From Actinomycetota bacterium (GTDB lineage: Bacteria; Actinomycetota; Acidimicrobiia; Acidimicrobiales; SZUA-35), in NCBI GenBank assembly GCA_039195375.1, contig JBCCVL010000004.1, positions 8,173 to 72,172 of the forward strand: a stretch of DNA of 64,000 nt, read 5' to 3'. The notes beneath the pieces were generated by a model, which saw nothing but the letters and a program-made list of their open reading frames with translations, was not told the DNA's origin and did not search any database. Both the position numbers and the translations under genes were made by a program. Shown one piece after another: positions 8,131 to 54,271 of this stretch (the stretch's first letter is position 1; every line of letters begins with the position of its first letter).

Positions 8131-8149
8131 CCCGGCTGAACGTATCCGG

Positions 8150-9901: not shown

Positions 9902-10273
9902 ATGACTGAACCGAGCGATCAACCCATCGAGTCCGTCCCCCCGACCGGCCCGTCGCCAGACGTCGAGACCGACGCCGTCGCCAACCCGTACTGCACGGGA
10001 GTGCCGCCCGTTCGGTGCAACCCGTCGCTCGAGGAGCTCTACCACTACATGGACGGGTTCCTCGACGAGGGCCGCGCCGCCGAGGTGCGCCAGCGGCTGG
10101 CGGACTGTCGGGGCTGCGGGGAGATCTACGACGTGCAGACCCAGTTCCGGCGTCTCATCGAGCAGCGCTGCCAGACCGAGCTGCCGCCCGACCTCAAGGA
10201 CAAGGTCTTCGGCGCCATCGCCGAGATCTCGCTCGGCCCCGCTCGCCCGGACCGTCCGGACCGCTCGAGCTGA
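9902..10273 (+). CDS. rshA: Anti-sigma factor, RsrA/RshA-like (ZAS family, non-canonical motif)
   Basis: C..LEELYHYMDGFLDE...RQRLADCRGCGEIYD...EQRC aligns with the RsrA cysteines. The residue 4 before CxxC is Arg instead of His. Confidence 0.7.
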   Translation: MTEPSDQPIESVPPTGPSPDVETDAVANPYCTGVPPVRCNPSLEELYHYMDGFLDEGRAAEVRQRLADCRGCGEIYDVQTQFRRLIEQRCQTELPPDLKDKVFGAIAEISLGPARPDRPDRSS

Positions 10274-10360
10274 GTCATCGGGTCGGGCGGCGGATCCCCG
10301 GTTCCGGCCGGCGGTCGCCCGAGGCGCCGACCACCGGCCCCCACGTCCTACACTGGGTCC

Positions 10361-10489
10361 ATGTTCGCTGTGGTATGGCACTGGTGGCTCGGATTCTTCC
10401 TCGCAATCGGCGGGGTGCTCGGCGTCGTCGGCCTCATCGTCGGCTATTTGGCCAAGGTCCAGAATCCCCGCTATCCCCGCAAGCCCTGA
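10361..10489 (+). CDS. Small (42-aa) single-pass membrane protein, not in the ORF track; likely leaderless
   Basis: MFAVVWHWWLGFFLAIGGVLGVVGLIVGYLAKVQNPRYPRKP. The -10-like TACACT (10349-10354) ends 6 nt before the ATG. GC3-rich codons. Confidence 0.35.
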   Translation: MFAVVWHWWLGFFLAIGGVLGVVGLIVGYLAKVQNPRYPRKP

Positions 10490-10552
10490 GCACGTGCAGC
10501 TGTGGCGGACGCACCTGCGGCGAGTGGGCACGATCACGACAGGTGGTGACCA

Positions 10553-38865: not shown

Positions 38866-40287
38866 GTGAGCAAGCGGTACGCACAGGTCCTGGTCTTCGT
38901 CACCTCGGGGGCGGTGCTGGTCCTGGAGATCCTGGCCGGCCGGTTGATGGCCCCCTACGTCGGCGTCTCCCTCGAGACCTTCACCGGGATCATCGGCACG
39001 ATCCTCGCCGGCATCGCCCTCGGCGCCGCCGTCGGCGGGAGCCTGGCCGACCGCCACGACCCCAACAAGCTGATCGGCCCGGCGCTCATGCTCGGGGGGA
39101 TCCTCGCCTGGATCTCGATCCCGGTGGTGACGGTGCTCGGGCCCGGGCTCGGCAACGCGGTCCCCGCCATCATCCTCCTCGCCTTCTTCGGCTTCTTCCC
39201 CTCGGCCCTCGTGCTGAGCGCCATCAGCCCGATGGTGGCCAAACTGCGGCTGCAGAGTCTGGAGGAGACCGGCGAAGTCGTCGGTGGCCTGTCGGCCGCC
39301 GGCACCTTCGGCGCCCTGTTCGGCACGTTCTTCACCGGCTTCGTCCTCGTGTCGGCCGCGCCGACCCGCCCGGTCGTCATCGTGGTCGGCATGGCGTTGC
39401 TGGTCTGGGGGGCGGCGTTCCACCTGCGCCGCGGGTTCGACCTCAGCGCCCGCTACGGCCTCGGCGGCATGGCCGCCCTGTTCCTGGCGCTGGTCGCCGT
39501 CGATCCCTGCGAGTTCGAGTCGGCCTACGCCTGCGGCCGGGTCGTCGCCGACGAGACCGACGAGTCGATCCGGTTCCTCCATCTCGACACCCTGCGCCAC
39601 GGCGCCGTCGACCTCGACGATCCGACCCACCTCGAGTTCCGCTACATCAAGCTGATCGGCGACGTGATCGACGCCATGCCGGACGGCCCCATCGACAGCC
39701 TGCACGTCGGCGGCGGTGCCTTCTCCCTCCCGGCCTACATCAACGCAACCAGACCCGGCTCGACCAACCTGGTTTCGGAGATCGATCCGCTGCTCGTCGA
39801 CGTCGGCCGCGATGAGCTCGGCCTCGTCACCGGCGACGACCTCGAGATCATCACCGGCGATGCCCGTCTCGCCATCCCCGACCTCGACGACGACGCCTAC
39901 GACCTCATCATCGGCGACGTCTACGGCGGACTGGCCGTCCCCTGGCACCTGACGACCACCGAGTTCATCGCCGAGCTCGACCGGGTCCTCCGGCCCGGTG
40001 GGATCTACGTCATGAACGCGATCGACGGCGATGAGAACCGATTCGTCGAGGCCCAGTTGGCCACCCTGGCGGAGCACTTCGAGCACCGGACGGTGATCGT
40101 CCCGCCCGAGTGGCCGACCGTCCGCCCCGCCAACCAGATCCTGATCGCCTCACACGAGCCGCTCCCCGCGATCGTCGTCGATGCCGACGACGGTTCGCTC
40201 ATCGACGACGTGGTGGCGTTCACCGGCGATGCCCCGGTCCTGCGCGACGACTTCGCCCCCGTCGAGCAGCTCGCCGCCAACCTCTAG
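38866..40287 (+). CDS. Fused polytopic membrane / spermidine-synthase-like (class I methyltransferase-fold) protein
   Basis: About 7 N-terminal TM segments, then a polyamine aminopropyltransferase-like region (HVGGGAFSLPAY, DLIIGDVYGG). Confidence 0.7.
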   Translation: MSKRYAQVLVFVTSGAVLVLEILAGRLMAPYVGVSLETFTGIIGTILAGIALGAAVGGSLADRHDPNKLIGPALMLGGILAWISIPVVTVLGPGLGNAVPAIILLAFFGFFPSALVLSAISPMVAKLRLQSLEETGEVVGGLSAAGTFGALFGTFFTGFVLVSAAPTRPVVIVVGMALLVWGAAFHLRRGFDLSARYGLGGMAALFLALVAVDPCEFESAYACGRVVADETDESIRFLHLDTLRHGAVDLDDPTHLEFRYIKLIGDVIDAMPDGPIDSLHVGGGAFSLPAYINATRPGSTNLVSEIDPLLVDVGRDELGLVTGDDLEIITGDARLAIPDLDDDAYDLIIGDVYGGLAVPWHLTTTEFIAELDRVLRPGGIYVMNAIDGDENRFVEAQLATLAEHFEHRTVIVPPEWPTVRPANQILIASHEPLPAIVVDADDGSLIDDVVAFTGDAPVLRDDFAPVEQLAANL

Positions 40288-40442
40288 CACCGGCCTCCAG
40301 ACCTCGCACCTCCCTGGCCGCCGTCGGCGGAGGAGAGCCATCGAGAGAAGAAGGCTCCAGCTCTGCCCTCGGGGCCTCCAACCCCTCAAAGATCGCGCCG
40401 TCGCGGCCGATCGGGTTCGTGAAACCCGAGGAGACGACGACC

Positions 40443-43400
40443 GTGCATCGAGCCGACAAGCGTGGAGGCGCGCCAATCGATGCTCCGTCGCGCCCACGAA
40501 CGTTGGCTGTTCTCGCCCTTGGAGTCGGCGCCTGCTACCTGTGGTGGCGGACCACCACGCTCGGCTCCGGCTCCCAGCTGGCCATCGCCGTGCCGGTGCT
40601 CGTGCTGGAGTTCTGGGCCTACGTCGAGCTGCTCCTGCTGACGCTCCAGTCCTGGCGCCTTCCACCGGCCACCGCCCGAAGCCGGAGCGGACGACCGGAC
40701 GGCACCGTCGACATCGTTGTCATCGCCGCCGGCGCCGACCCGGACGACCTGGAACGTACGCTGATCTCGTGCCGGGCGGTCCGGGGCCGCGACCGCATCA
40801 TCGTCGTCGACGACGAGCGGCGGATCCGTCACCGCGCCCTCGCCACCGACGCCGGCGCCTCGTACCGGATCGACCGAAGGGCCCTCTCCGCCCCCGGACT
40901 GGCCGCTCACCGGAACACCACCGCTGCGCTGTACCTGTGGCTGATGGCGGGGCAGCTCCCCACCGCCGATCTGCTCGAGGTCGCCGGCCCCCGCTTCGTC
41001 GAACGCGATCTGGCCGTGTGCCAGCTCGCCATCCGCCTGCTGAACCAGGAGGACCTGGCCCACCTCGGGCGCGACGCCGACGACGATGCCCTCGTCAACA
41101 ACGTGGTCGGCCCCGGCCTCTCCCGCTGGGGTGCGGGACCGTGGATCGGCCCAGCCTCGGTCGTTCGGCGCCGGGCCATCGAAGCGATCGGCGGATTCGA
41201 CCGTCACGTCCCGATCGACCGCCTCGGCGCCAGGCTCCACGGGGCCGGCTGGACGACGGCGTTCGAGCGACGCCAGCTCGTGGCCGCCACCGCTCCCGAG
41301 TCGATCGACCTGTACCTGGCCAAGCGCCGACGGGACGGCGGGGCCGCGCTCTCGGTCCTGCTCTCGCCCGATGGCCCCCTGAACCCTCGGCACGCCATGA
41401 CCGTCGGCCAGCGGGTGGCCCACCTCGCCGCCGCCGCTCGGCACGCCACGAGCCTCCGCCTCCTCGGCCTGGCCACCGCCGCGGTGGCCGTCGTGCTCAG
41501 CGGCGCGTTCCCGGCCGAGACGCCGGCCTTTGCGCTGCTCGTCTCCTGGGCGGCCGTCACCGCCCTGTCGTCGGCGGCCAAGCGAGCCCTGGCCCGGGGC
41601 ACGATGGGCTACGGCGATTGGCTCCGGCAGGGCTGGAGGGTCCTCGGGGCCGACGTCGCCGCCGCCGTCGATGCGGCAACCAAGCGGGTCGGGACGACCG
41701 TCGTCGACGTCGAACCGGACCGGGCCACCGGCGGGTGGCGGTCGTTGCTACACCTGCCGCTGGTCCAGATCGTCGTGCTGACGGTCGACGCCGCCCTGCT
41801 CGTCCGGGCCGCCAGCCTGCTCGATCGCGACCTGCTGCCAGCCTTCACCGGCGCCCAGCGGGTGGTCACCATCGGCTTCGCCATCGCCCTGCTGGTCCCG
41901 ATCGTCGACATGCTGCAGGTCATCGTGGTCCGTCAGCAGCAGCGGACGAGCTACCGGATCCAGGCCGAGCTCGACGCCACGGTCGACGGCACCCCGGCCC
42001 GCACCGTCGACATCACCCCGGAGGGTGCCGGCGTGCTGCTCGCCGCCGAGCCCGCGATCGGCTCCACCGTGTCGCTCGAGATCTCGCTGCCCGGCGCCGA
42101 TGGCGTCATCCGCCGGATCGTGGCCACCGCCGTCACCCGCGCCGCAAGACCGGAGGGCACCGACCGGTGGCGGGCCGGGTTCGAGCTGACCCAGATGGCG
42201 GCCCCGGCCAGGCAGGCGTTGGTTGCGTTCTGCGCCGAGCTGGAGTCGGACGACATCGACGAGGACCAGGCCACGGCCCTCGATCCCGTCGCGGCCCAGG
42301 AGCTGCGTCGCCGCCGGTCGCTCCGCCGGATCACCCTCGGTGCCGGCGTTGCCGGCCTGGCGACGATGGTCTTCGGCCCGACCGTCGCCTCCGCCTCGAC
42401 CACCACCCCCCATCTCGTCGAGTCCGTCTGCGTCGTCGACCCGGACGGCGGTCCCGTCCCCGAGGTCGGGATCAGCCGCCTGACCGGCGACGTCGCCGAC
42501 GTCCTCGGCGCCACGACCCTGACCGGCTGCCTCGATGTCGGCGCCGTCGAGACCACCACCGGGTTCACGATCGACCACCGGGGCCTGGTCCACGAGCTCC
42601 AGCCGGCCGACTACCGCACGACGGAGGCCGTGGTCACGCTGCGCCGCTGGGCGGTCCGGGTCTACGACCTCGATGCGACTCCCCGTGGCGACGTCGAGGT
42701 CCGGTACTTCAGCGACCGCTGGTTGGCCACGGCGCCGCCGACCGCCGTTGACGAGGGCCACCGGTTCGATGCGCCACCGGTCGACGGCGGCGCACTCTCG
42801 GTCGAGGTCACACTCGACGGGTCCCGCCTGGTCCGGGCCTTCGGTGCCGACGGTGTGATCGTGCTGTCGCGGGTCCGGCTGGAGCCCGAGGTCGACGAGG
42901 CCGGTCAGCCGGTGACCACCTGGCTCGACCGCGGTCGTGGCTGGGAGCCGGCGGGCGACGGCATGGAGTTGGTGCCGGGCCGGATCGTGGTCCGGACCGG
43001 TGACGGCACCATCCTGCGCCTCGACGTGCCCGAGGCGTCCGAGCTGCGGCTGCCGGCCGGTGACATCGTGCCCGTCGAGGTCGAGCTGCCCGAGCTGCCG
43101 GTCGACGAGCAACCCCAGCAACCGGCCGACGGCGAGGTGCCGGCCGACGACCCGGACGGCGGTCCGCTCGACGACCCGATCGAGGGAACCACGTCGACCT
43201 CGGTCGTCGACGAGGACACCCCGGCCTCGACCGCAGTGCCGACCGACGACGGTGACGTCTCGACATCGGAGCCGGCGTCCGAGCCAGGCGACGCCGTCGA
43301 TCCCGGCTCCACCTCGACGGCACCGCCGTCGGCCGAGCCGACGCCGACCACGGTCCCGTCCACCACCTCACCGACCCCCTCGCCGTCCTCGACCGCACCG

Positions 43401-43508
43401 ACGACGGCGCCGCCAACGGACGTATCGTCCTCGACGACGGCGACGACCGGTGGGGCCGAGACGTCGTCGACCGCCACCGGCGGTGATCCCGGAGGCGGCG
43501 GTCCATGA
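40443..43508 (+). CDS. BcsA-like GT2-family membrane protein with a PilZ domain and a roughly 430-aa extracytoplasmic S/T/P-tailed C-terminus; catalytic motifs look degenerate
   Basis: SD GAGGAG (40428-40433) before GTG 40443. Two TM segments, then a GT2-like region (VDIVVIAAG..IIVVDDERR, GPASVVRRRAIEAIGGF). PilZ: RQQQR, 21 aa, DITPEG. A further TM segment (ITLGAGVAGLATMVFG) is followed by the C-terminal region. Confidence 0.7.
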   Translation: MHRADKRGGAPIDAPSRPRTLAVLALGVGACYLWWRTTTLGSGSQLAIAVPVLVLEFWAYVELLLLTLQSWRLPPATARSRSGRPDGTVDIVVIAAGADPDDLERTLISCRAVRGRDRIIVVDDERRIRHRALATDAGASYRIDRRALSAPGLAAHRNTTAALYLWLMAGQLPTADLLEVAGPRFVERDLAVCQLAIRLLNQEDLAHLGRDADDDALVNNVVGPGLSRWGAGPWIGPASVVRRRAIEAIGGFDRHVPIDRLGARLHGAGWTTAFERRQLVAATAPESIDLYLAKRRRDGGAALSVLLSPDGPLNPRHAMTVGQRVAHLAAAARHATSLRLLGLATAAVAVVLSGAFPAETPAFALLVSWAAVTALSSAAKRALARGTMGYGDWLRQGWRVLGADVAAAVDAATKRVGTTVVDVEPDRATGGWRSLLHLPLVQIVVLTVDAALLVRAASLLDRDLLPAFTGAQRVVTIGFAIALLVPIVDMLQVIVVRQQQRTSYRIQAELDATVDGTPARTVDITPEGAGVLLAAEPAIGSTVSLEISLPGADGVIRRIVATAVTRAARPEGTDRWRAGFELTQMAAPARQALVAFCAELESDDIDEDQATALDPVAAQELRRRRSLRRITLGAGVAGLATMVFGPTVASASTTTPHLVESVCVVDPDGGPVPEVGISRLTGDVADVLGATTLTGCLDVGAVETTTGFTIDHRGLVHELQPADYRTTEAVVTLRRWAVRVYDLDATPRGDVEVRYFSDRWLATAPPTAVDEGHRFDAPPVDGGALSVEVTLDGSRLVRAFGADGVIVLSRVRLEPEVDEAGQPVTTWLDRGRGWEPAGDGMELVPGRIVVRTGDGTILRLDVPEASELRLPAGDIVPVEVELPELPVDEQPQQPADGEVPADDPDGGPLDDPIEGTTSTSVVDEDTPASTAVPTDDGDVSTSEPASEPGDAVDPGSTSTAPPSAEPTPTTVPSTTSPTPSPSSTAPTTAPPTDVSSSTTATTGGAETSSTATGGDPGGGGP

Positions 43509-44086
43509 GCGTCCGCCGACTGCTGTTCAGCGTCCTCGGTGCTGCCATCGTGCTCGGCGCCGCCGGGTTGCTGACCCTGCGTGCCGTGACCACGTCGAGC
43601 GCCCGACTCAGCGCCTCGACCTCGGGGTCGGGCACGTTCGAGGCCGGCACCGTCGACCTCGCGCAGCCGGAGTCGATCGTCAACCTGCTGTTCGACGCAG
43701 ACGGCCTCTACCCCGGGGTCGTGATCCCGTCGTGTCTGGTGATCGGCTACGACGGCAGTCTCGACGCCGGCGTCCGCCTGCACGCAGCCAACGCCGGGGG
43801 CGACGGGCTGGAGGACCACGTCGACCTGCGGCTGTGGCTCCGGCGCTCCGGCGACTGCCCGGACGACGCAGGCCAGACCGCCGCCGACCGGGGACCGCCG
43901 ACCTTCGACGGACTCCTCGGCGACCTCTGGCGCACCCACCCCGACTACGACCGTGGCCTGATCCTCATCGATCAGGCCACAGCCGGCGATCGCCTGGTAC
44001 TCGACGCCGAGGTGGAGCTGCGCCACGACCCCGACGCCCAGGGTCGGACGACCGAGTTCACCATCACCCTCGAGGCCAGGCCATGA
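43505..44086 (+). CDS. TasA/camelysin-like protein 1 with a SipW-type signal peptide
   Basis: ATGA overlap with the upstream gene. Signal anchor plus ...SGSGTFEAGTVDL..., a YPG strand, and a C-terminal EFTITLEA. Two Cys. Confidence 0.65.
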   Translation: MSVRRLLFSVLGAAIVLGAAGLLTLRAVTTSSARLSASTSGSGTFEAGTVDLAQPESIVNLLFDADGLYPGVVIPSCLVIGYDGSLDAGVRLHAANAGGDGLEDHVDLRLWLRRSGDCPDDAGQTAADRGPPTFDGLLGDLWRTHPDYDRGLILIDQATAGDRLVLDAEVELRHDPDAQGRTTEFTITLEARP

Positions 44087-47000
44087 GGTGGCTCACTGGC
44101 ATCCCGCTCGATCGGGTCCGTCGCGCCGCAGCGAGACCGGACCAGCTGGCGCGCCTGGTCGCCGGCTTCGTCGCCTACCTCTACCTCGCCGTCGTGTTGT
44201 TGCTCGGCGCATGGCTGGTGGTCATCAGCCTGACGACCGGCTGGCGGCCGGTGGTGATCACCGGTGGCTCGATGCTGCCGACGCTTCGGGTCGGCGACGT
44301 CCTCCTGGTCGAGGACCACCCGGACGGGCTCCTCGGCCAGCGCTCGGTCATCACCTTCGAGCCGACCAGGGGCGATGGGGCGATCACCCACCGCATCCAC
44401 GAGGTGTTGCCCGAGTCCCAGACCTACCTCACCAAGGGCGACGCCAACGCCGACGTCGACAGCGATCCGGTCAGCCCGTCGCAGGTGCTCGGGGTCGGAC
44501 GGCTGGTCATCCCGCTGCTCGGCCTGCCCGTCATCTGGGGGCTGAACGGCGACTGGCCGGCTCTGGCCGCCATCGGTGTGCTCTCGATCGGTGCCGTCGT
44601 CATCGTGGTGTCCAACGCCGTCGGTGACCGGTCGAGCAACCGGTCCGGGTCGGGGCGGACCTCGGAGATGGCGAACCGGGGGATCCGCCGCGTCCGGTTC
44701 CTGGCCGGCCTCATGATCGTCAGTGGCCTGTACCTCGACGGCTCCAGCATCGAGGAGGTCGGCTGGGGGCCCGGCCGCAACCAGGTGGTGGCCCTCACCC
44801 TCGCCGTGCTGATCGCCGTCAACCTGATCTCGACCACCGCCTCCAGCCGGGGTCGCCACCTCGGTCGTGATGGCCCGCCCGACTGGCTCGTCCTGGCCGA
44901 GCTCGGCGCCGACACCGTCCTCGCCGGCGTCCTGATCGCCCTCACCGGCGGCTCGGGCATCGCCTGGGCCTTCATCGCCCTGCCGATCGTCGAGGCCGCC
45001 GTGCGGTTCCGACTGGTTGGCGCACTCCTCCACTGGGTCCTGATGACGCTGCTCACCGTCGGGGCCCGCTTGTTCGCGCTCGACCGCGGCGGCGTGCCGC
45101 TGTCGGAGATCATCAACGAGCTGGAGCAGTTGCTCGACCAGCTCGGGATCCTCCTGCTGCTGGTCATCCCCGGCGCCTACCTGACCGAGCAGCTCGTCAC
45201 CGACGTGATCCGCCAGGATCGGGCCACCGCGGTCGCCATCGAGCGGGCCCGGCTGCTCGAGAAGGTGGCCGAGACCGGCTACGAACTGAACCGGATCGGC
45301 AACGAGCTGTTCCAGACCCTCACCAGGGCCGTGACGTCGCTCGGGTTCGACCTCGGCGACGCTCATCTGCTGCTACCGGACGGGCGCTGGAAGGCGCTGG
45401 CTGCGTCACCCATCGAGCGGGATCGGGCGTTGCCGGAACCCGGCGAGGCCGGGAGCGGTCTCCGCACGGACGACCTCGGCATGAACGAGGTCCTCGTCGA
45501 CCACGACGATCCCGAGTTGTCCGAGGTCCTCAGCCTGCAGGCCCACGACCTGGAGATGCTGGCCCGGCTGACCGTGTCGACCGAGGAGGGGCGCCACGTC
45601 GTCGTCCGGGCCGCCAACCTGACCGGTTCCGGCCTCCGGGCCGGCAGCATCGATGCGCTCCGCCTCCTGACCGGCCAGGCCGCGGTGGCGATGCAGAACG
45701 AGCAGCTCGTCGACGAGCTGCAGGGCGTCCAGGAGGAGCTGGCCCAGCAGGCGTTGCACGACGCGCTGACCGGGCTGCCGAACCGGGCGCAGTTCCTCGA
45801 TCGGCTCGAGCGGGGCCTGGCGATGGCAACCGACCCCGAGCGGCGTCATGTCGTGATGTTCATGGACCTCAACGGGTTCAAGGCGATCAACGACTCGCTC
45901 GGTCACGATGCCGGCGATGCGCTGCTCATCGGGGTGGCCGGCCGGCTCACGTCTGCGGTCGCCGACGACGGCCTGGTCGCCCGGCTCGGCGGCGACGAGT
46001 TCACCGTGCTGTTGGAGCCGGTGGCCGACATCAACCGGGCCATGGCGGTGGCCCAACGCATCCACGATGCGGTGGCCGAACCGTTCCAACTCGGCGACGA
46101 GCGGGCCGAGGTCAGCGGCAGCATCGGGCTGGCCCCGGCCGAGCTCGGGCTCGGCGGGAGTGAGATCCTGCGCCGGGCCGACGTGGCCATGTATGCCGCG
46201 AAGTCGTCGAGGGCAACGCCCCGCATCACGATCTACCATGCCTCGCTCGACGGGCAGGACCAGCGGCGTGGTCGGCTCAGCGCCGAGTTCGTCAAGGCGC
46301 TCGAAGCCGGTGAGCTGCACCTCGTCTACCAGCCCCTCGTCGACCGCGACGGCGACATCCGTGGCGTCGAGGCGCTCCTGCGCTGGACCCACCGCGAGAT
46401 GGGGCCCGTCAGCACCGCCACCATCCTCGAACTGGCCGAGGCCGCCGACCGGGTCGACGAGCTGGCCGCCTTCATCTTCGGCACCGCGACGGCCAGCATC
46501 GCCGGGCTCGGTATCCCCCGCCACGTCGACTTCACCCTGGCGGTCAACGTCACCCCGACCGAGTTGGGCTCCCCGAACCTGGTCGAGTTGGTTCGCCAGT
46601 CGCTGGCCGACAGCCGTCTCGGAGCCGAACGGCTGATCATCGAGCTCAACGAGCGGGTGGTGGCCGACGGCGAGGGCTCGCTCGACAACATCCACCGGGT
46701 CGTCGCCATGGGGGTCCGGCTCGCCCTCGACGACTTCGGCGAGGGACGTACCTCACTCGGGCACCTCCGTGGCCTGCCGATCAGCCAGCTCAAGCTCGAC
46801 CTCGGCCTGGTGCAGCAGGCGGCCGAGTCCGACTCGGATCGCATCATCCTCGACTCGATGGTTGGCCTGGCCCACGACCTGCAGTTCGAGGTCGTAGCCG
46901 AGGGCATCGAGACCGAGAAGCAGCTGGAGGTCGTGCTCGGCGCCGGCGCTGATCTCCTCCAGGGGTACGGTCTCTACCGGCCGATGGAGCTCGATCGGCT

Positions 47001-47331
47001 CCGTCGGGTGCTCGGCGAGTTCGACCTGACCGGGCCGGTGACCCGGGCACTTCCCTTGCGTCCGCCAACGGGCCCGGGCCCGATCTCGGCGACGCGGCCG
47101 CCCCCGATGCCGACGCCGATCGTCGTCGACGAACCGGTCGCCCCGGTCGAACCGGCCATGCCCGAGGCCCCGACCAGACCGCCGGCCCGGGGCCCGGATC
47201 CGCCGGTTGCGATGTTGGCCGGCTCGCCCGGTGATGTCGGACCGCCGATCGATGATCCGCCGGCCGATCGGCGGTCGGTTCCGGCACCGCCGGCGCCCCC
47301 GACCCCGCCGAGCAGACGGGGGGTTGGCTGA
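44083..47331 (+). CDS. SipW-type (S26B) signal peptidase I fused to a polytopic membrane domain, a GGDEF domain and an EAL domain
   Basis: ATGA overlap. Peptidase: ITGGSMLPT, AITHRIHEV, TKGDANADVDSD. At least 6 further TM segments. GGDEF: NGFKAINDSLGHDAGD...RLGGDEFTV (about 45988-46002). EAL: YQPLV...EALLRW (46369), DDFGEGRTSLGHL, LKLD, VAEGIET, QGY. Pro-rich tail. Confidence 0.85.
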   Translation: MRWLTGIPLDRVRRAAARPDQLARLVAGFVAYLYLAVVLLLGAWLVVISLTTGWRPVVITGGSMLPTLRVGDVLLVEDHPDGLLGQRSVITFEPTRGDGAITHRIHEVLPESQTYLTKGDANADVDSDPVSPSQVLGVGRLVIPLLGLPVIWGLNGDWPALAAIGVLSIGAVVIVVSNAVGDRSSNRSGSGRTSEMANRGIRRVRFLAGLMIVSGLYLDGSSIEEVGWGPGRNQVVALTLAVLIAVNLISTTASSRGRHLGRDGPPDWLVLAELGADTVLAGVLIALTGGSGIAWAFIALPIVEAAVRFRLVGALLHWVLMTLLTVGARLFALDRGGVPLSEIINELEQLLDQLGILLLLVIPGAYLTEQLVTDVIRQDRATAVAIERARLLEKVAETGYELNRIGNELFQTLTRAVTSLGFDLGDAHLLLPDGRWKALAASPIERDRALPEPGEAGSGLRTDDLGMNEVLVDHDDPELSEVLSLQAHDLEMLARLTVSTEEGRHVVVRAANLTGSGLRAGSIDALRLLTGQAAVAMQNEQLVDELQGVQEELAQQALHDALTGLPNRAQFLDRLERGLAMATDPERRHVVMFMDLNGFKAINDSLGHDAGDALLIGVAGRLTSAVADDGLVARLGGDEFTVLLEPVADINRAMAVAQRIHDAVAEPFQLGDERAEVSGSIGLAPAELGLGGSEILRRADVAMYAAKSSRATPRITIYHASLDGQDQRRGRLSAEFVKALEAGELHLVYQPLVDRDGDIRGVEALLRWTHREMGPVSTATILELAEAADRVDELAAFIFGTATASIAGLGIPRHVDFTLAVNVTPTELGSPNLVELVRQSLADSRLGAERLIIELNERVVADGEGSLDNIHRVVAMGVRLALDDFGEGRTSLGHLRGLPISQLKLDLGLVQQAAESDSDRIILDSMVGLAHDLQFEVVAEGIETEKQLEVVLGAGADLLQGYGLYRPMELDRLRRVLGEFDLTGPVTRALPLRPPTGPGPISATRPPPMPTPIVVDEPVAPVEPAMPEAPTRPPARGPDPPVAMLAGSPGDVGPPIDDPPADRRSVPAPPAPPTPPSRRGVG

Positions 47332-47942
47332 TGGCCCGATCCCTGCTCGACCTGCACGACGCCGACGACGGCGGCACCATCGATGATCGCGAGAATCGGG
47401 TTGGCCGACTGGCCGCCGCTGCCTTGGCGGCGGCGGTTTCGGCGTTGATCATCGGTTCGCTCGTGGTGACGTTCAGCGACCGGGCGCTCGGGCCGGACGG
47501 CACGGTCGCGGCGGCCACGGTCACGTCGGGCACGATCTCGCTGGTCGACGACGACCAGGGGCGGTCGTTGTTCGACCTCGCCGACATGGCCCCCGGGCGT
47601 CCCGTCGTCCATTGCATCGAGCTGGTCTACGACGGCACGATCGTGCCCGTCGACCTGGCCATGCGGGCCGAGGCGTCCGGCGACCTGACCCGCTTCCTCG
47701 ACGTCGCCGTCGAGTCGGGCAAGGGCGGCGGCTTCGATGACTGCAGCGGTTTCGAGTCGACCGGCCAGGTCTACGGCGGGACGCTGGCCGAGCTCGCCGC
47801 CTCGGGGTGGCTCGATCTCGGGACGCTGGTCAATGCGGGCCAGCGCAGTAGCTACCGGATCTCGTTCGAGCTCCAGGATCGCCAGGAGGCACTCGGCCGC
47901 GCCGCCAACGCCTCGTTCGTCTGGGAGGTGACGCCGACATGA
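47331..47942 (+). CDS. TasA/camelysin-like protein 2
   Basis: TGATG junction. ...LVVTFSDRAL...ATVTSGTISL..., MAPGRPVVHCIELVYDG, and a C-terminal SFVWEVTP. Two Cys. Confidence 0.6.
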   Translation: MARSLLDLHDADDGGTIDDRENRVGRLAAAALAAAVSALIIGSLVVTFSDRALGPDGTVAAATVTSGTISLVDDDQGRSLFDLADMAPGRPVVHCIELVYDGTIVPVDLAMRAEASGDLTRFLDVAVESGKGGGFDDCSGFESTGQVYGGTLAELAASGWLDLGTLVNAGQRSSYRISFELQDRQEALGRAANASFVWEVTPT

Positions 47943-48721
47943 CCGAAACGACCGACACCAGCGGCAGGGGGCCGGACCCCGGGCCGATACGCGACGGGCG
48001 GGACACCCCCTCGGGCTCCGGCCCGACAGCCGGTCCGACCGCCGACCCGACGGCCGCGGCCGGCGATCGTCGACGCGTTGCGCTCCTCGTCGCCGCCTCG
48101 GTGGTGGTGGCGCTGCTCGGCGTGTCCGTCCCCGTCGGTGTCGCCCTGGTGAGCCGCAGCTCGTCGGCAAGCTTCGCCGATCGGGAGGTCCTGGCCACGA
48201 ACCGCCTCGGCGCTGCCACCCTCGACCTCCAGGTCGACGGCGGGTCGTCGAACTCCCCGCTCGTCGAGCTCGGCGAGGGTCCGCAGGCGATCGACGAGGA
48301 CACGAGCAACGCGGTGTTCGTCGCCACCAACCTCGCGCCCGGCGATCGTGTGTCCGGCCACCTGGAGATGACCAACCGGGGTGACCTCCCGTTGCGGTAC
48401 GGCCTCCAGGCGGTCAGTTCCGACGGGATGCTCGCCGAGTGGCTGCGGTTCGAGGCGTGGGTCGGGAGCGGAATCTGCTCGCCGGACCAGGCCGGACCCC
48501 GGTTGGTGAGCGAGGCCAGGGTCTCCGCCGAGCCGGCGGTCCTGCTGCCGCTCGCCACACCGGCGGGAGCGACCCCGCTGAACGTGTTGGAGCCCGGCGA
48601 GTCGACCCTGTGGTGCCTCGGCGCCACGCTGTTGCTGGAGACCCCGAACGAGGCCCAGGGTCAGGCGCTCGACGTGACCCTCTTCGTGCCGATCGAGCAG
48701 GTCGTCGAGGTCGGGCCGTGA
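47939..48721 (+). CDS. TasA/camelysin-like protein 3
   Basis: ATGA overlap. ...SSSASFADREVLATNRLGAATLDL..., NLAPGDRVSGHLEMTNRGDLPLRY. Two Cys. Confidence 0.65.
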   Translation: MTETTDTSGRGPDPGPIRDGRDTPSGSGPTAGPTADPTAAAGDRRRVALLVAASVVVALLGVSVPVGVALVSRSSSASFADREVLATNRLGAATLDLQVDGGSSNSPLVELGEGPQAIDEDTSNAVFVATNLAPGDRVSGHLEMTNRGDLPLRYGLQAVSSDGMLAEWLRFEAWVGSGICSPDQAGPRLVSEARVSAEPAVLLPLATPAGATPLNVLEPGESTLWCLGATLLLETPNEAQGQALDVTLFVPIEQVVEVGP

Positions 48722-51700
48722 CCGGCGCCGACGAGCTCGCCTCGCCTCCACCGGTGTCTCGCCGAGCCCGGATCACCGGGATCCTGGTCACGACCACATC
48801 GCTTGTCGTCCTCGGGCTGGTCGGGGTGGTCGTCGGTGGGCTCCTGGCCGGCTATCGCCCGGTCGTGATCCTGACCGGCAGCATGGGCGACACCGCTCCT
48901 CCCGGGTCGCTGGTCGTCGCCGCACCGGTCGACGGCGACGCCGTGGCCACCGGTGACATCCTCGTGATGCGCCGACCGGACGCAGCGACCGTCACCCACC
49001 GGGTGATCGAGATCGAATCCGCCGGCGCCGACCGTTTCGCCATCACCCGGGGCGACGCCAACGAGGCACCGGACGCCGCCCCGTACCCCTTGACCGGTGA
49101 CCAGCTGGTCGGCCGGTTCGCCGTCCCACGACTGGGCGAGCTGGCCCTCACCGTGTTCCAGCCCGGTCTGGTCTTCGCCCTGGTCGGCCTGGCCACGTTC
49201 GTGTTCGCCCTTGGGGCGCTGCGTCGGATCTGGGCCGGACCGGATCTGCCCGCCGACCTCGACCCCGACGTCGACCCCGACCCTGACGTCGATCCCGAGT
49301 ACGAGCACGGCGCCGGCGTCGACCCCGGGCTGCACCACGACGAGACCGGGTCCGGTACCCACGATCGGGGTGGGGCGGCCCCCGCGCCCCGGCGGGGGCG
49401 TCGCAAGCTTGCCCTGTTCGTCGTGCCGGTCGTGCTCGCCGGCAGCGCCGGGGTGGCGTGGGCGCTGGCCCAGGCCACCGCCCCGGTCGACGCCAACACC
49501 TTCGGCACCGCCCAGTGCTTCGACCCCGAGCTCCACTCGGTCCAGCAGGGCGAGACCGTCCATTCGATCAGCGGCACGATCAACGTGCCGATCGCGGCCG
49601 TCGACCCGACCACGTCGTTTGTCGTCGCATCGCTCCGCAGCAACGCCTCCGACCCGGCCGACTCGATGGTCCAGGTCGAGCTCGGCGGCGGGGGCACGAC
49701 CGTCGACCTGGTCAGGGCCACCGATGCCGGCTCGCCTCCGCCGGTGGTCGTGAACTGGTCGGTCGTCTCCTACGCCTGCGGCGTCACCGTGCAGCGGGGC
49801 TCGCTCAACGGCGATGGCACCGCCCAGCTCGACACGGCGATCACCGCCGTCGACCCGGGCTCGTCGTTCGTGCTGGTCAGCTCCGCCCCCGACTCGACCG
49901 CCTCGAGCTACGCCGGCAACGACCTGTTCGTCGGCGAGTTGGCCGACCCGTCGACGGTCCGGATCCGGGCCACCGGCTCGACGTTCCCGACCGGCCAGAG
50001 CTTCGCCTGGCAGGTGGTCGAGTTCGACGACTCCGCCGATGCCACCGTTCAGACGATCTCCGCCACCCTCGGCCTCGGCGTCACCTCGACGACGGCGACG
50101 ATCCCGAGCCCGGCCGACCCGGACACCACGCTGCTGCTGGCATCCGCCCTCTCGGCCGCTTCGGGGGCCGACATCGGCGAGCGGCTGATCCGGACCCATC
50201 TGGTCGACGCCACGACGGTGGCCGTCGACCGGGCCGTCGGCGGCGACCCCGTCGAGGTCCGCATCCAGGTCGTGACTCTGGCCGACGGCTCGATCGTGCG
50301 CCACGGGACCGTCGACCTGGCCGCGGCCCAACCGGCGGCCACCGTCACGATCGACGCCGTCGACCCCGGCCGGGCCGTCGCCTTCTCGACCGTGGCCCAG
50401 CCCGGCGTCCCAGCCGGCGGCCTCAGCGACCACGTGGCCGACGACGTGCCCGGCGAGGCCAGCGCCACCTTCGACGTGACCGACCCGACCACCGTGTCGA
50501 TCACCCGCGATGCGTCGTCCTCCAACGCCTCCTTCGGCTGGCAGGTGGTCGAGTGGGCCGGGCCCCGCTGGTGGGACAGCGCCTACAGCTTCCGGCAGCG
50601 CATCGACGTCGTCACCTCGGCAACCGCTGCTCCCGACGCCTACACCGTGCCTCTCGTCCTCGACCACGCCTCGCTGGTCGGCTCGGGCCTGGCCCAGGGG
50701 AGCGGTGACGACCTGCGGGTCCTGCGGTGGGACGGCACGGCCTGGGCCGAGCTCGACCGCGTGCTCGAGGACGGCTCCGCCTGGAACCGGGCCGACACCG
50801 AGCTCTGGTTCCGCACCACCGACCCGATCGCCGCCGACACCACCAACACCTACTGGCTGTACTTCGGCAACGGGGCCGCCGGCACCGCCCCCGCCGACCC
50901 CGAGGCGGTGTTCCTGCTCACGGAGGACTTCGACGCCGGGACGCTCGGCGACTTCGAGGACCGGACCGGCGGCACCGGCTGGTATCAAGCCATGCCGTGG
51001 ACCCGCCGGATCCCGGTCACCGTCGCCGCCGGCACCGCCAGCGCTGACCTCACCGACTTCCCGCTGCTCGTCTCGCTGACCTCGGCCGACCTTGCGGCCA
51101 ACGCCAACGGCGACGGGAGCGACATCCGCTTCACGTCCGCAGACGGGGTCACCCCCCTCGCCCACGAGATCGAGTCGTACGATGACGGCACCGGGGCTCT
51201 CGCCGCCTGGGTTCGGGTGCCGACGGTCAGCGCCGGTTCGGCCACGACGGTGTACCTCTACTACGGCGCGAGCGACGCCCCGGCCCAGCAGGACGTCCGG
51301 GGCACCTGGCCAGAGGAGATCCGGGCCGCCTGGCACCTGGCTCGCGACCCGTCCGGCTCTGCCCCCCAGCTCGACGACTCGACGCCGTTCAACAACGACG
51401 GCCTCAGTTCCGGGGCCATGACCTCCGGTGACCTCGTCAACGGGGCGGCCGGACCGGCGGTCGACCTCGACGGCGGCGACGACCACCTCCGAGCCGCGCC
51501 GTTCGACGTCGCCGGTGCCGGCGGGCTCACCGTCTCGGCCCTGGTCCGGCTCGACGCCCTGCCGGCCGGCGAAGGCCGGGTCGTGGCCAAGGCCGCCGAC
51601 GGCTCGACCAGGATCGTCGAATTGGCGATCACCGCCGCCGGCGATCTGGTCGGTCGGCTCTCGCTCGACGGGTCCGAATCCCAGCTCACCGCTGGCACGG

Positions 51701-52365
51701 TTTCGACCGGTGTGTGGCGCCACCTGGCCATGACCTGGGACGGCACGACCCAACGGCTGTTCGTCGACGGTGTCGAGGTCGGCTCACAGCCGGCCAGCGG
51801 GGCCATCGACGCCGCAGCCACGATGCCGATCACGATCGGTGACCTGGTCACCGGCGGCGGTGCGATCGACGGTGCCGTCGACGAGGTCCGGATCGAGACG
51901 GTGGCCCGGTCGGCTGCCTGGCTGGCCGCGACCCAGGCCAACCAGCGGACCCCCGGCTCGTTCCTGTCGATCGGCGCAACCGAGGGTGGCTCCTGGTTCG
52001 ACCAGGGCACCTGGTCGTACCGCAAGCCGATCCGGGTCGAATCGGACCTCATCACCGCCGACCAGTCGGCCTACCCGCTGCTGGTCCAGGTGACCGACGC
52101 CGAGCTGTCGGCCGCAGCCACCGTCAACGGTCGCGATCTCGTGTTCACCGCCGCCGACGGCACCACCAGGCTCGACCACACCGTCGAGTCGTGGGACCGG
52201 GGCTCGGGGGCGCTGACCGCCTGGGTGCTGCTGCCGACGCTGTCGTCGAGCACCGACACCGAGCTGTTCCTCTACTACGGGAACGCCTCCGCCGCAGCCC
52301 AGGAGGACCCCACCGCCGTGTTCGGGCCCGAGGCCGACCTGGTCCTCACCGGGGCCGACTCATGA
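48718..52365 (+). CDS. Second SipW-type signal peptidase fused, through an internal SipW-type signal peptide, to a large beta-sandwich / DUF2341 / LamG passenger
   Basis: GTGA overlap. Peptidase: LTGSMGDT, VTHRVIEI, TRGDANEAPD. TM2, a DP-repeat linker, then RRGRRKLALFVVPVVLAGSAGVAWALAQATAPVDANTFGTA. Three W-x-V-V-E repeats follow. Three DUF2341-like units (W.YR..I.V ... DIRF/DLVF ... LYYGN) flank a LamG-like block (VWRHLAMTWDG...LFVDG). Confidence 0.8.
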   Translation: MTGADELASPPPVSRRARITGILVTTTSLVVLGLVGVVVGGLLAGYRPVVILTGSMGDTAPPGSLVVAAPVDGDAVATGDILVMRRPDAATVTHRVIEIESAGADRFAITRGDANEAPDAAPYPLTGDQLVGRFAVPRLGELALTVFQPGLVFALVGLATFVFALGALRRIWAGPDLPADLDPDVDPDPDVDPEYEHGAGVDPGLHHDETGSGTHDRGGAAPAPRRGRRKLALFVVPVVLAGSAGVAWALAQATAPVDANTFGTAQCFDPELHSVQQGETVHSISGTINVPIAAVDPTTSFVVASLRSNASDPADSMVQVELGGGGTTVDLVRATDAGSPPPVVVNWSVVSYACGVTVQRGSLNGDGTAQLDTAITAVDPGSSFVLVSSAPDSTASSYAGNDLFVGELADPSTVRIRATGSTFPTGQSFAWQVVEFDDSADATVQTISATLGLGVTSTTATIPSPADPDTTLLLASALSAASGADIGERLIRTHLVDATTVAVDRAVGGDPVEVRIQVVTLADGSIVRHGTVDLAAAQPAATVTIDAVDPGRAVAFSTVAQPGVPAGGLSDHVADDVPGEASATFDVTDPTTVSITRDASSSNASFGWQVVEWAGPRWWDSAYSFRQRIDVVTSATAAPDAYTVPLVLDHASLVGSGLAQGSGDDLRVLRWDGTAWAELDRVLEDGSAWNRADTELWFRTTDPIAADTTNTYWLYFGNGAAGTAPADPEAVFLLTEDFDAGTLGDFEDRTGGTGWYQAMPWTRRIPVTVAAGTASADLTDFPLLVSLTSADLAANANGDGSDIRFTSADGVTPLAHEIESYDDGTGALAAWVRVPTVSAGSATTVYLYYGASDAPAQQDVRGTWPEEIRAAWHLARDPSGSAPQLDDSTPFNNDGLSSGAMTSGDLVNGAAGPAVDLDGGDDHLRAAPFDVAGAGGLTVSALVRLDALPAGEGRVVAKAADGSTRIVELAITAAGDLVGRLSLDGSESQLTAGTVSTGVWRHLAMTWDGTTQRLFVDGVEVGSQPASGAIDAAATMPITIGDLVTGGGAIDGAVDEVRIETVARSAAWLAATQANQRTPGSFLSIGATEGGSWFDQGTWSYRKPIRVESDLITADQSAYPLLVQVTDAELSAAATVNGRDLVFTAADGTTRLDHTVESWDRGSGALTAWVLLPTLSSSTDTELFLYYGNASAAAQEDPTAVFGPEADLVLTGADS

Positions 52366-52387: not shown

Positions 52388-52402
52388 GTGGCCAGTGGCC
52401 AC
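52388..52402. promoter_or_regulatory. Perfect 7-1-7 palindrome in the only intergenic gap of the operon
   Basis: GTGGCCA g TGGCCAC, 43 nt upstream of the ATG of TasA-like gene 4. Confidence 0.25.
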
Positions 52403-52444
52403 CCGATCCGCGCCGGCCACGACGCCGGTGCAGAAAGGCACGAC

Positions 52445-53068
52445 ATGTCCACCTCCCCTCAGGCCCCCTCCAGGCGGGCGCCGGCTCGGCGCCGGGGCAA
52501 CGGTGCCCGCATGCTGGCCAGTGTCGCCGTGCTTGCCCTCGCCGGCGGTGTGTTCACCGTGTCGTCGCTCGCGTTGTTCACCGACTCCGAGGACGTGTCC
52601 GGCAACGCCTTCACCACCGGAACGGTCGACCTGACCGCCACCCCGGCCACCGCCGTGGTGACGGCGGCAAACATGGCTCCTGGTGACCAGGTGACCAATC
52701 CGCTCGACGTCGCCAACTCGGGCACGCTCGAGCTTCGTTACTCGATGGCGTCGGCCACCACCGAGGACGTCCTGGCGGCCGAGTTGGTGCTCACCGTCAA
52801 GGAGGGGGTCACCACGTGTGACGACTCGAACTGGAGCGCCGACGGGACCACCCTCTACTCGGGGCCGCTCGGCTCGACCGGAGGCACGCCCGTCATCGGC
52901 GACCCGACGCAGGGATCGCAGGCCGGTGATCGGGTGCTGGCCGCCGGGGCCGACGAGACGCTCTGCTTCAACGTGACGCTGCCCCTGTCGGCCGGGAGCA
53001 ACGCCGAGGGCCAGTCGACGTCGGCCACGTTCACCTTCGAAGGCGAGCAGACCGCCAACAACCCGTAG
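52445..53068 (+). CDS. TasA/camelysin-like protein 4 (the most canonical SipW-type signal)
   Basis: ...VSSLALFTDSEDVSGNAFTTGTVDL..., NMAPGDQVTNPLDVANSGTLELRY, and a C-terminal ATFTFEGEQ. Two Cys. Confidence 0.75.
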   Translation: MSTSPQAPSRRAPARRRGNGARMLASVAVLALAGGVFTVSSLALFTDSEDVSGNAFTTGTVDLTATPATAVVTAANMAPGDQVTNPLDVANSGTLELRYSMASATTEDVLAAELVLTVKEGVTTCDDSNWSADGTTLYSGPLGSTGGTPVIGDPTQGSQAGDRVLAAGADETLCFNVTLPLSAGSNAEGQSTSATFTFEGEQTANNP

Positions 53069-53125: not shown

Positions 53126-54271
53126 TCAGGGCCTGGCGTCGAAGGCGACCCGCTCGTCTGAGATCGCCCGCAGCTCCCGATGGTGCTCGGCCAGTTCGCC
53201 CATGGCGGCGGTGATGTCGTCGATCGTCGAGACCGTGTCGGCCACCTGACCGCCGATCCGGCGTAGCGTGTCGGCGATCTCGGTCCCACTGGCTGCGGAC
53301 TGGCGGGCCAGCTCCTGGACCTCGTTGGCGACCACGGCGAAACCTCGACCGGCCTCACCGGCCCTGGCCGCCTCGATGGTTGCATTGAGGGCCAACAGGT
53401 TGGTCTGGGCTGCGATCTCTTGGATGACATCGCTGGCGGCCATGATCCCGGTGCTGGTGGCTTCGAGCTCTCCGATGGCACCGGAGGCGGCCTGGGTCCG
53501 CTCGTTGACCCGGGACACGATCTCCTCGCCGGTCTGGGCGGCCTCGACCATCCGGTCCTGGAGGCGGATCCGCTCCTGGAGCTCGGCTGCGGCCAGGTCC
53601 AGGCGCTCCCGCTCCGCCTCCTCGGCCGCGGCCGCCGCTTCGGCCTCGGCCTGCCTGGCCTGCTCGTCGGCCAGCGACCTGGCGGCGGCGGCCTCGATCT
53701 CGGCCTCCCGTGCCTTCTCCAGCATCTCGGCTCGGGCGGCGGCCGATGCCTGCTCGTTGGCGACCGCCTCCTCGGCCATCTCCTCGAGCCGCCGTCGCTG
53801 CCAGGCGGCGACGAGGCTGATGAACGACACCAGCAGCCACGAGCTGGCGAACAGCGGGATCGCCTCGAGCAGCGGCTTGGTGAGGAGCTGGGGGACGAGC
53901 AGCGGGGCGGCGACACCACCGATGCAGGCGTACACGTGGTTGCGGGGCAGGACCATGCCAACCCAGAGCATCGTCAGGCCCATGCCGGCACCGAGTCCGG
54001 GGTCGGCGTCGGGGTTGAGGTACTGCACGACCGTGACCAGGGCGAACGCCAGCCACGCCTGGGCTGCTGCAATCCCGGTCGACACGGTCTGCCGTTCGGC
54101 CACCGCGAGCGACACGCCGACGGCGGCGATGATGCCGGCGACCCCGAGCGAGGCCGTTCTCGGATAGCCCTCGGTGCTCATCGAGCCGAGGGCGATGGCG
54201 ACCGCAGCCGCCATCCACGTTCGTGACAGGAACGAGGTCGACATGAGGAGGTCGTCTGATCGGTGCTCCAC
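53126..54271 (-). CDS. Polytopic membrane protein with a short methyl-accepting-chemotaxis-type signalling domain (no HAMP seen)
   Basis: About 6 N-terminal TM segments and an Ala/Glu coiled coil. MCP hairpin tip [40 protein letters not shown]. Start is GTG 54271 or ATG 54244. Confidence 0.7.

Follow-up and report, generated by a model that had tools for sequence, protein, structure and literature searches.

A 64,000-nucleotide (nt) stretch of a genome from the class Acidimicrobiia (contig JBCCVL010000004.1 of assembly GCA_039195375.1, positions 8,173 to 72,172 of the forward strand; hereafter the window) carries a gene for a protein of 1215 amino acids (aa), in which a signal peptidase of the SipW/SEC11 type is followed in one reading frame by a linker, an internal signal peptide and a large passenger protein. 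The gene is probably such a peptidase joined to its own substrate, which would be cleaved at A249↓L250 (arrows mark predicted cuts), releasing the passenger as a TapA-like fibre initiator, anchor or adhesin. This reading is based on sequence comparison, and we give it a probability of about 0.62. It is carried by the conservation of the fusion among species, by the signal-peptidase motif at the predicted cut, and by the likeness of the residues after the cut to the N-terminus of the TasA homologue encoded directly downstream. The positions of the features are collected in Table 1.

Reading frame, conservation and modularity of the fusion

The fused gene lies in a stop-to-stop open reading frame (ORF) at 48439-52365 (+). 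The sole start codon that fits the neighbouring genes is the GTG at 48718, which overlaps the stop codon of the upstream gene as GTGA. The sequence-only reading, made earlier without database searches, had stated that neither a stop nor a plausible start codon separates the two halves, and this was borne out. From the second transmembrane segment (TM2) to the basic n-region of the internal signal, the frame is free of stop codons and of ATG, GTG and TTG codons; the first codon that could serve as a start is a GTG within the hydrophobic core (h-region) of the signal. In addition, a conserved internal start or Shine–Dalgarno sequence in the linker was looked for among the orthologues and none was found. 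Since the G+C content at third codon positions (GC3) stays at 0.80-1.00 in the fused frame throughout the junction, there is no sign of a frame change there. The window as a whole has ~72% G+C.

A database search with residues 1-632 returned about twenty proteins with the same peptidase-linker-signal-passenger layout, all of them from metagenome-assembled genomes of Acidimicrobiia. The database records name these fused proteins "signal peptidase I" or "DUF2341 domain-containing protein". A locus scan with one genome per species returned 56 loci; in 41 of them, from species-representative genomes nearly all labelled Acidimicrobiales or Acidimicrobiia, peptidase and passenger stand in one stop-to-stop ORF, i.e., the fusion is present in 41 of the 44 orthologous loci with both halves. 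The closest one (L003, an Acidimicrobiales bin) shows 87% identity. Since a single ORF is found in 41 species-level loci, the fusion is, on this comparison, a conserved trait and not an artefact.

The sequence-only reading had named a stop and restart near the junction in orthologues as the finding that would speak against it. A stop or frame change in the linker was found in three loci (L001, L049 and L054). Since the passengers of L049 and L054 carry more frame changes further down, their splits are probably assembly errors. L001 is the sole clean split: its peptidase (7411-8016) stops inside the linker, and its passenger (8001-11042) starts at a GTG located 16 nt upstream of the peptidase stop, in another frame. 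It may be a genuine gene fission or the result of a single indel or assembly error; if the fission is real, it would be a natural experiment showing that both halves work apart. A word-indexed search with the peptidase domain alone gave only short database proteins; these were not counted as true split forms, as several of the twelve inspected end at contig ends or read out of frame.

Both halves also occur separately. A stand-alone form of the window peptidase (SipW-2), with 178 or 181 aa and ending soon after TM2, is found in syntenic operons without the passenger (L059-L062; protein P0042 on three contigs and P0040 on one). There the gene order is TasA-like, SipW-1-GGDEF-EAL, TasA-like, TasA-like, SipW-2, TasA homologue, SipW-1 being the first of the two SipW-type peptidases in the operon. 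In every case, the gene after the stand-alone peptidase encodes a TasA homologue with the same pattern at mature positions +1 to +16 as described below for the passenger. More distant, passenger-only homologues with the same signal at their own N-terminus were found as well (P0014, P0020, P0023, P0024, P0026 and L044). The passenger of L044, with 1153 aa, starts ...AISFA↓LFDDTDDVGANTFDTTDCF, and those of P0024 and P0026 have about 1015 aa, while P0020, P0023, L048, L050 and L052 consist of the beta-sandwich array only. From this distribution, peptidase and passenger are separable modules.

Additional fusions were found by an exhaustive search with the peptidase domain. In P0118 (386 aa, L063 6001-7161), SipW-2 is fused directly to the TasA homologue in a locus otherwise syntenic with the window operon, and its internal signal passes TIGR04088 at aa 208-239 (23.6 against a cutoff of 19). 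P0138 (L064 125-1201, on a short contig from another metagenome) is a second SipW::TasA fusion, and both proteins pass Peptidase_M73 (31.3 and 35.6, respectively, against a cutoff of 22.5). They share with the window gene the peptidase lineage, the TM2-linker-internal signal design and the A↓LFTD...N.F.T motif. P0118 shares the operon position too, whereas L064 is too short to show it. Their passenger is the fibre subunit itself, whereas that of the window gene is a DUF2341/LamG protein; a SipW::TasA fusion could, by analogy with Bacillus TasA, polymerise only with its N-terminus freed. The same TM2-linker-signal design joins SipW to a LysM protein in P0203 (...YA↓LFSDSE) and to proteins of unknown fold in P0206 and P0224. 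P0117 has two tandem peptidases followed by a cupredoxin and P0030 a SipW with a LamG protein, P0132 and P0209 are tandem double peptidases, and P0183 and P0204 are peptidases with plain cytoplasmic tails.

In a neighbour-joining tree of the peptidase domains, the stand-alone forms are nested in the fused clade and P0030 falls outside. The tree is a rough one, built from 135 aa by a distance method and lacking support values, and was used only for this nesting. Because of the nesting and the placement of P0030, it suggests that the fusion is ancestral for the window peptidase lineage and that the other fusions arose independently. Taken together, the fusions found suggest that joining SipW to a further protein is a general, recurrent and overlooked architecture.

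Internal signal, peptidase and passenger

The sequence-only reading had placed an internal signal after the peptidase, at 49390-49515, and this segment was recovered in the 41 fused loci with a canonical signal-peptidase site. In the orthologues, a run of 4-6 Arg precedes a hydrophobic core of ~14-15 residues, often with a central Pro. The predicted cut is after A249 (between nt 49464 and 49465), in the motif A247-W-A249↓L250. Position -1 is Ala or Ser in 41/41 orthologues (A31/S10), position -3 is A33/V4/T3/G2, W is found at -2 in 32 sequences, and 35 of the 41 have G at -5; the cut is followed by L at +1 and then F/Y at +2. The sequence AQA↓T, four residues further down, is specific to the window and is not conserved; the conserved motif predicts the cut at A249↓L250. 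Filing the internal segment under TIGR04088 was rejected since the window protein gave no match to this model (the distant stand-alone homologue P0020 scored 13.7 bits against the cutoff of 19), and own tests with hidden Markov models (HMMs) were used instead.

In the downstream TasA homologue (TasA-like 4), the signal passes into the mature N-terminus at SSLA↓LFTDSEDVSGNAFTTGTVDL. Counted from the predicted cut, the same residues stand in the same register in 41 passengers and in 35 TasA-like-4 proteins, namely L+1, F/Y+2, V+8, N+11, F+13 and T+15, whereas past T+15 the TasA homologue has G-T-V-D-L and the passenger A-x-C-F-D. An HMM of the 41-residue internal segment (n-region to N-x-F-x-T-A, with the folded passenger excluded) was run against 3011 ORFs from all loci. 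It matched the N-terminus of the directly downstream gene in ~30 loci, end to end, with E-values from 3e-5 to 3e-2 (0.0057 for the internal segment and its own downstream homologue in the window), and gave no significant match to the other TasA-like genes of the operon. The earlier claim that the internal signal mimics the N-termini of all four TasA-like proteins thus has statistical support for the directly downstream gene (52388-53068) but not for the other three.

The HMM was also split at the predicted cut, and both parts were judged against reversed-database decoys. With the +1 to +16 part alone, 27 of the 35 TasA-like-4 proteins scored better than the best decoy and 4 other matches were obtained; with the pre-cleavage part, 0/35 did so. 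By these models, the specific similarity to the downstream TasA homologue is located in the 16 post-cleavage residues and not in the signal itself. The profile of TasA-like-4 orthologues matches the TasA structures 8aur_A and 5of1 with E ~8e-7 and places the shared motif on TasA residues 34-43, F39 included, so by profile comparison the downstream gene is a true TasA relative.

The Arg run (49390-49407, at the same place in 41 orthologues), together with the moderately hydrophobic core rich in Ala, Gly and Thr, resembles a twin-arginine (Tat) signal. In actinobacterial Rieske proteins, the first two TM segments are inserted by Sec and the third by Tat. The passenger might likewise use Tat, and not Sec, for its export.

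Hydropathy of the fused protein shows three hydrophobic segments (aa ~20-44, 151-168 and 231-249). The peptidase half passes TIGR02228 (NCBIfam; MEROPS S26B, SipW-type) with 61.1 bits against a curated cutoff of 51.85 at aa 23-135, and it has the Ser and His (not Lys) and the GDxN Asp of this type as S55 (TGSM), H94 (THR) and D113 (GDAN). The fused orthologues likewise have the GSM, THR and GDAN motifs, four of them showing a variant Ser motif. The fold is SEC11-like, with Foldseek matches to human SEC11C and SEC11A (7p2q_A, 7p2p_A) at a probability of 1.0 and a template-modelling score (TMt) of 0.52-0.56. Judged by motifs and fold, it is an intact S26B-type signal peptidase, with predicted activity. 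The Bacillus SipW equivalog NF046067 gave 41.4 bits against a cutoff of 190; by these scores, the window peptidase is of the same type as Bacillus SipW but not its orthologue.

An AlphaFold2 (AF2) model was obtained for aa 1-632 with a mean predicted local distance difference test score (pLDDT) of 77. Values were 60-90 in the peptidase, <50 in the linker and <60 in the cleavage region, with the helix of the third segment (TM3) at low confidence. Residues 250-264 are disordered in the model (pLDDT <50) and are followed by a very confident all-beta domain at aa 268-620.

The "DP-repeat" linker described in the sequence-only reading is present as an 18-nt imperfect tandem repeat at 49254-49298, detected with Tandem Repeats Finder (TRF), and the two peptides quoted there, DLPADLDPDVDPDPDVDPE and RRGRRKLALFVVPVVLAGSAGVAWALAQATAPVDANTFGTA, were confirmed in the window protein. 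None of the other fused loci has the repeat; in L003, the closest relative, the linker is only similarly acidic. Linkers among the orthologues have 16-68 aa (median 29) and no common sequence. Between the window and the 87%-identical L003, the signal region is nearly the same at the DNA level but the linker has diverged. A functional DP repeat, e.g., a protease site or a metal-binding segment, was rejected, as the linker is not conserved even between the window and L003.

After the predicted cut, the mature passenger would have 966 aa. A passenger of roughly 1000 aa made of beta-sandwich, DUF2341 and LamG domains had been anticipated, and Pfam and the fold search agree with it. Foldseek matched the N-domain to the C-terminal domain of PCSK9 (7anq_A, TMt 0.48; three-lobed) and to TgPLP1 APC-beta. 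Assigning a function from these hits was rejected, as they are generic matches to repeated beta-sandwich or prism folds and imply none. Cys267 and Cys354 are invariant among the orthologues, and a disulfide between them would fit an exported domain. Peptidase_M73, the jelly-roll family of TasA and camelysin, was not matched in the passenger in the Pfam search.

Processing model and alternatives

From the observed architecture, conservation, modularity, cleavage-site motif and N-terminal mimicry, we infer the following course of export, cleavage and strand donation. Hydropathy and the positive-inside rule predict that TM1 runs from inside to outside, leaving the catalytic domain outside, that TM2 runs back, leaving the linker in the cytoplasm, and that TM3 runs outwards again. 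TM3 would be an ordinary cleavable signal peptide, with an Arg-rich n-region, an h-region of ~14 aa and the c-region G-V-A-W-A↓L. It would insert, the 966-aa passenger would be translocated, and the chain would then be cut at A247-W-A249↓L250, in cis if its own peptidase domain acts, in trans if that of a neighbouring copy does, or else by the paralogue SipW-1. The cut would leave a three-TM peptidase of ~25 kDa in the membrane, free to process TasA-like subunits, and would release the passenger. By analogy with TapA and AbpB, the new N-terminus of the passenger would be given as a donor strand to a TasA-like subunit, and the passenger would be the initiator, anchor, cap or tip adhesin of a fibre whose subunit is the TasA homologue encoded downstream. 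Through its beta-sandwich, DUF2341 and LamG lectin-like modules, the passenger would attach either to the exopolysaccharide of the operon's synthase, predicted to be controlled by cyclic di-GMP (c-di-GMP), or to another surface.

SipW-type peptidases have N- and C-terminal membrane anchors, hence a cytoplasmic C-terminus. Since the C-terminus is cytoplasmic, a preprotein can be fused to it head-to-tail at no topological cost, and the multiple independent fusions fit this explanation.

A bolder version of the model is tentative. It takes the gene as an obligate self-processing polyprotein, in which the peptidase domain makes a single co-translational cut in cis in its own internal signal, freeing an active SipW and, next to it, a passenger that seeds the polymerisation of TasA-like subunits processed by that same SipW. 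It further supposes that fusions of SipW-type peptidases to substrates, with TasA, LysM, cupredoxin or LamG as passenger, form a class that recurs owing to the cytoplasmic location of both ends of the enzyme. If true, one gene product would set the number and location of the fibre assembly sites.

Several points weigh against processing and strand donation as proposed here. Cleavage is a prediction from the motif. In the AF2 model the cleavage region is not placed in the active site, at a confidence (pLDDT <60) too low to bear on cis cleavage. Neither the window protein nor three close orthologues gave a match to TIGR04088 (cutoff 19) in their internal segment. The second peptidase paralogue of the operon, SipW-1, is a possible true processing enzyme. 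The fold of the passenger is not TasA-like, and only its first 16 mature residues resemble TasA. Position +2 is Ala in the window, L003 and L012, not the Phe or Tyr matching TasA F29, so the donor strand may be weakened in the window genome; moreover, the conservation of +1 to +16 could come from recognition by the peptidase and not from strand donation. Finally, all the relatives are metagenome-assembled genomes.

TM3 could also be an uncleaved anchor, with the passenger staying on the peptidase as a surface lectin or adhesin, or as a platform that holds the fibre, while the peptidase processes only the separate TasA-like proteins. The lack of docking in this low-confidence part of the AF2 model would agree with such a permanent tether, and fusion alone does not imply a substrate, because SipW-1 carries the non-substrate GGDEF-EAL and P0183 and P0204 carry plain cytoplasmic tails. 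Nevertheless, an anchor needs neither Ala or Ser at -1 in 41/41 orthologues nor a small residue at -3 and G at -5, the h-region has just ~14-15 residues, and the identical segment serves as the N-terminal signal of the stand-alone homologues. In addition, the SipW::TasA fusions would be non-functional if uncleaved, and a conserved disordered segment that copies the N-terminus of the fibre subunit is hard to explain if this end is never free. A permanent tether is accordingly judged unlikely. The explanation that the fusion serves co-expression only is judged improbable: here, a housekeeping LepB-type peptidase or SipW-1 would release the passenger, and the fusion would merely give 1:1 synthesis and co-localisation. 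The pre-cleavage signal, which has no specific similarity to TasA-like signals, fails TIGR04088 and could be generic, would agree with it, as would the presence of two SipW paralogues. It does not account for partners of this peptidase lineage repeatedly starting with an A↓LFTD-type SipW-substrate motif (P0118, P0138, P0203, P0206 and P0224), nor for the stand-alone peptidase always preceding a TasA homologue with the +1 to +16 pattern.

There remains the case of two genes joined artificially by a sequencing or assembly frameshift or a lost stop codon, or of a passenger translated from an internal start. The linker stops or frame changes of L001, L049 and L054 and several database entries ending inside the linker would speak for it. 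It is opposed by a fused ORF in 41 independent species-level assemblies, by the continuity of in-frame GC3, by the absence of an in-frame start from TM2 to the n-region in the window and of a conserved start or Shine–Dalgarno sequence in the orthologues, and by the further passenger frame changes of L049 and L054, many of the short database entries being moreover cut at contig ends or out of frame. By these comparisons, an assembly artefact is effectively excluded. As to the enzyme-substrate interpretation of the sequence-only reading, every comparative test able to overturn it came out in its favour, and it is supported to that extent.

Known systems and operon setting

In Bacillus subtilis, the donor strand of TasA is formed by residues 28-38, right after the SipW site, with contacts through F29, I32 and F39 (PMC9674648), and SipW is the processing peptidase of TapA (PMC9674648). 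Mature TapA, which begins at A44 after removal of the signal peptide, starts the filament by strand donation from its N-terminus (PMC10151520), and the stop codon of tapA overlaps the start codon of sipW (PMC10151520). The window system resembles tapA-sipW-tasA in that a doubly anchored peptidase of the endoplasmic reticulum (ER)/archaeal type is encoded among TasA-family genes, together with a secreted accessory protein that, once cleaved, mimics the donor strand of the fibre subunit with its N-terminus, here by sequence. This N-terminal segment is disordered in both cases, as predicted by AF2 for the window protein and as reported for TapA. Whereas tapA and sipW are already tightly coupled by their stop/start overlap, peptidase and accessory protein are one polypeptide in the window. 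The order is also different, as the peptidase precedes the accessory protein and the signal peptide is internal. In addition, the accessory protein is four times larger than TapA and has an unrelated fold, a beta-sandwich array like the V-domain of PCSK9 plus DUF2341 and LamG, and the operon has two peptidase paralogues and four TasA-like genes in a host of the class Acidimicrobiia. The window system may thus be regarded, by analogy, as a SipW/TasA/TapA biofilm-fibre system in which the enzyme and an initiator-like substrate are joined.

For archaeal bundling pili, the larger protein AbpB was proposed as initiator and adhesin (PMC9245690). AbpA/AbpB of Pyrobaculum calidifontis resemble the window system in that the fibre subunit has a TasA fold and is accompanied by a larger, beta-rich protein, proposed to provide the first donor strand and to serve as adhesin (PMC9245690), but there is no dedicated peptidase near the archaeal operon and no fusion. 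With SEC11 and archaeal signal peptidase I (S26B, TIGR02228), the window peptidase shares the fold, the Ser/His(/Asp) motifs and a membrane-proximal active site; unlike them, it has about 1040 residues beyond the second anchor.

No description of an S26B member carrying its substrate in cis was found, and no paper on SipW::TasA-like fusions or on a class of SipW fusions. Searches for a SipW-substrate fusion, for SipW in Acidimicrobiia or Actinobacteria and for SipW with DUF2341 gave nothing relevant in the full-text literature, a coverage that leaves out most subscription journals.

The usual picture of a signal peptidase is that of an independent enzyme which encounters its substrates while diffusing in the membrane. 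An enzyme-substrate fusion kept among species would be a natural single-chain system for substrate recognition and for cis versus trans cleavage in the ER/archaeal-type family, which includes human SEC11; the fusion fixes enzyme and substrate at 1:1, and a clear size shift would report cleavage. The finding would also carry the TasA/TapA donor-strand model of biofilm fibres beyond Firmicutes and Archaea to the Acidimicrobiia, a class of actinobacteria that is abundant in soils, sediments and waters and for the most part uncultured. Moreover, it indicates a large lectin-like protein as the candidate fibre initiator or adhesin, in an operon with a c-di-GMP-linked polysaccharide synthase.

Six successive genes at 40110-48721 (+) follow each other with stop/start overlaps of 1-4 nt (at 43505/43508, 44083/44086, 47331, 47939/47942 and 48718/48721), from the synthase with glycosyltransferase family 2 (GT2) and PilZ domains through the TasA-like genes and both peptidases. 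The block looks like one translationally coupled operon.

Table 1. Features of the fused gene and of its operon. TM, transmembrane segment; positions are those of the window.
Feature	Position (nt)	Strand	Basis
Fused gene, 1215 aa: SipW-type peptidase, linker, internal signal peptide, passenger	48718-52365	+	ORF, start codon, frame, 41 related loci
TM1, N-in anchor of the peptidase (aa ~20-44), RRAR before it	48775-48849	+	Hydropathy; helix 15-43 in AF2 model
Extracytoplasmic catalytic domain, ER/archaeal-type signal peptidase I	48850-49161	+	TIGR02228, motifs, Foldseek
Catalytic residues Ser55; His94; Asp113	48880-48882; 48997-48999; 49054-49056	+	
TM2 (aa 151-168) and conserved cytoplasmic RRIW (aa 169-172), predicted to return the chain to the cytoplasm	49168-49233	+	Hydropathy; orthologue alignment
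Predicted cytoplasmic linker (aa 173-224), acidic in the window genome	49234-49389	+	TRF; alignment; pLDDT <50
Internal signal peptide (aa 225-249): n-region RRGRRK, h-region LALFVVPVVLAGSA, c-region G-V-A-W-A	49390-49464	+	Position frequencies, 41 orthologues
Predicted new N-terminus of the passenger (aa 250-266, LAQATAPVDANTFGTAQ), TasA-type donor-strand-like	49465-49515	+	Register, HMM, AF2 disorder
Passenger N-domain (aa 267-620), all-beta array of ~four repeated sandwich units	49516-50577	+	pLDDT mostly >90; Foldseek
Passenger C-terminal region, DUF2341 modules flanking Laminin_G_3	50578-52362	+	Pfam
DUF2341, best stretch (aa 799-863)	51112-51306	+	Two stretches, 1.3e-30, 106.1 against gathering cutoff 23.4
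Laminin_G_3, concanavalin A-like (aa 918-1068)	51469-51921	+	9.6e-24, 84.7 against gathering cutoff 27.6
Cellulose-synthase-like GT2 + PilZ domain, operon head	40443-43508	+	PilZ 5e-7; weak Glyco_trans_2_3; TIGR03030 CelA 2.5e-16, well under cutoff
TasA-like 1, small secreted protein with ...TFEAGTVDL motif	43505-44086	+	Sequence; position kept in related operons
SipW-1, paralogous SipW-type peptidase + hydrophobic region + GGDEF + EAL, 1082 aa	44083-47331	+	TIGR02228 55.5 against cutoff 51.85; GGDEF 6e-41; EAL 3e-52
TasA-like 2	47331-47942	+	Translationally coupled to TasA-like 3 (stop/start overlap)
TasA-like 3	47939-48721	+	Translationally coupled to TasA-like 2 and the fused gene; weak Peptidase_M73, 19.8 bits against cutoff 22.5
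TasA-like 4, TasA homologue directly downstream of the fused gene	52388-53068	+	Peptidase_M73 1.1e-10; TIGR04088 29 bits against cutoff 19

The GT2-PilZ protein may be, from its domains, a c-di-GMP-activated exopolysaccharide synthase. It also has a long C-terminal tail rich in Pro, Thr, Ser and Asp (...TTSPTPSPSSTAPTTAPPTDVSSSTTATTGG...). TasA-like 1 gave no significant Pfam or NCBIfam match.

SipW-1 has all three motifs (GGSM, THR and GDAN), and its long hydrophobic region is probably, from the sequence, a membrane region. Most related loci have an upstream second SipW-type peptidase match within an ORF of roughly 700-1400 aa, and the gene tables of L001, L059 and L063 show a GGDEF+EAL gene of 973-987 aa at the SipW-1 position. 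It is unusual for a signal peptidase to be linked to domains of c-di-GMP turnover. For the C-terminus of B. subtilis SipW a second, regulatory role has been reported, and the SipW-1-GGDEF-EAL arrangement recalls that role.

Directly upstream of the operon, at 38866-40287 (+), lies a fused membrane protein resembling the major facilitator superfamily (MFS) and spermidine synthase (NF037959, 309.6 bits). Just downstream, the opposite-strand ORF at 53126-54271 (-) carries what we take to be the signature of the signalling domains of methyl-accepting chemotaxis proteins.

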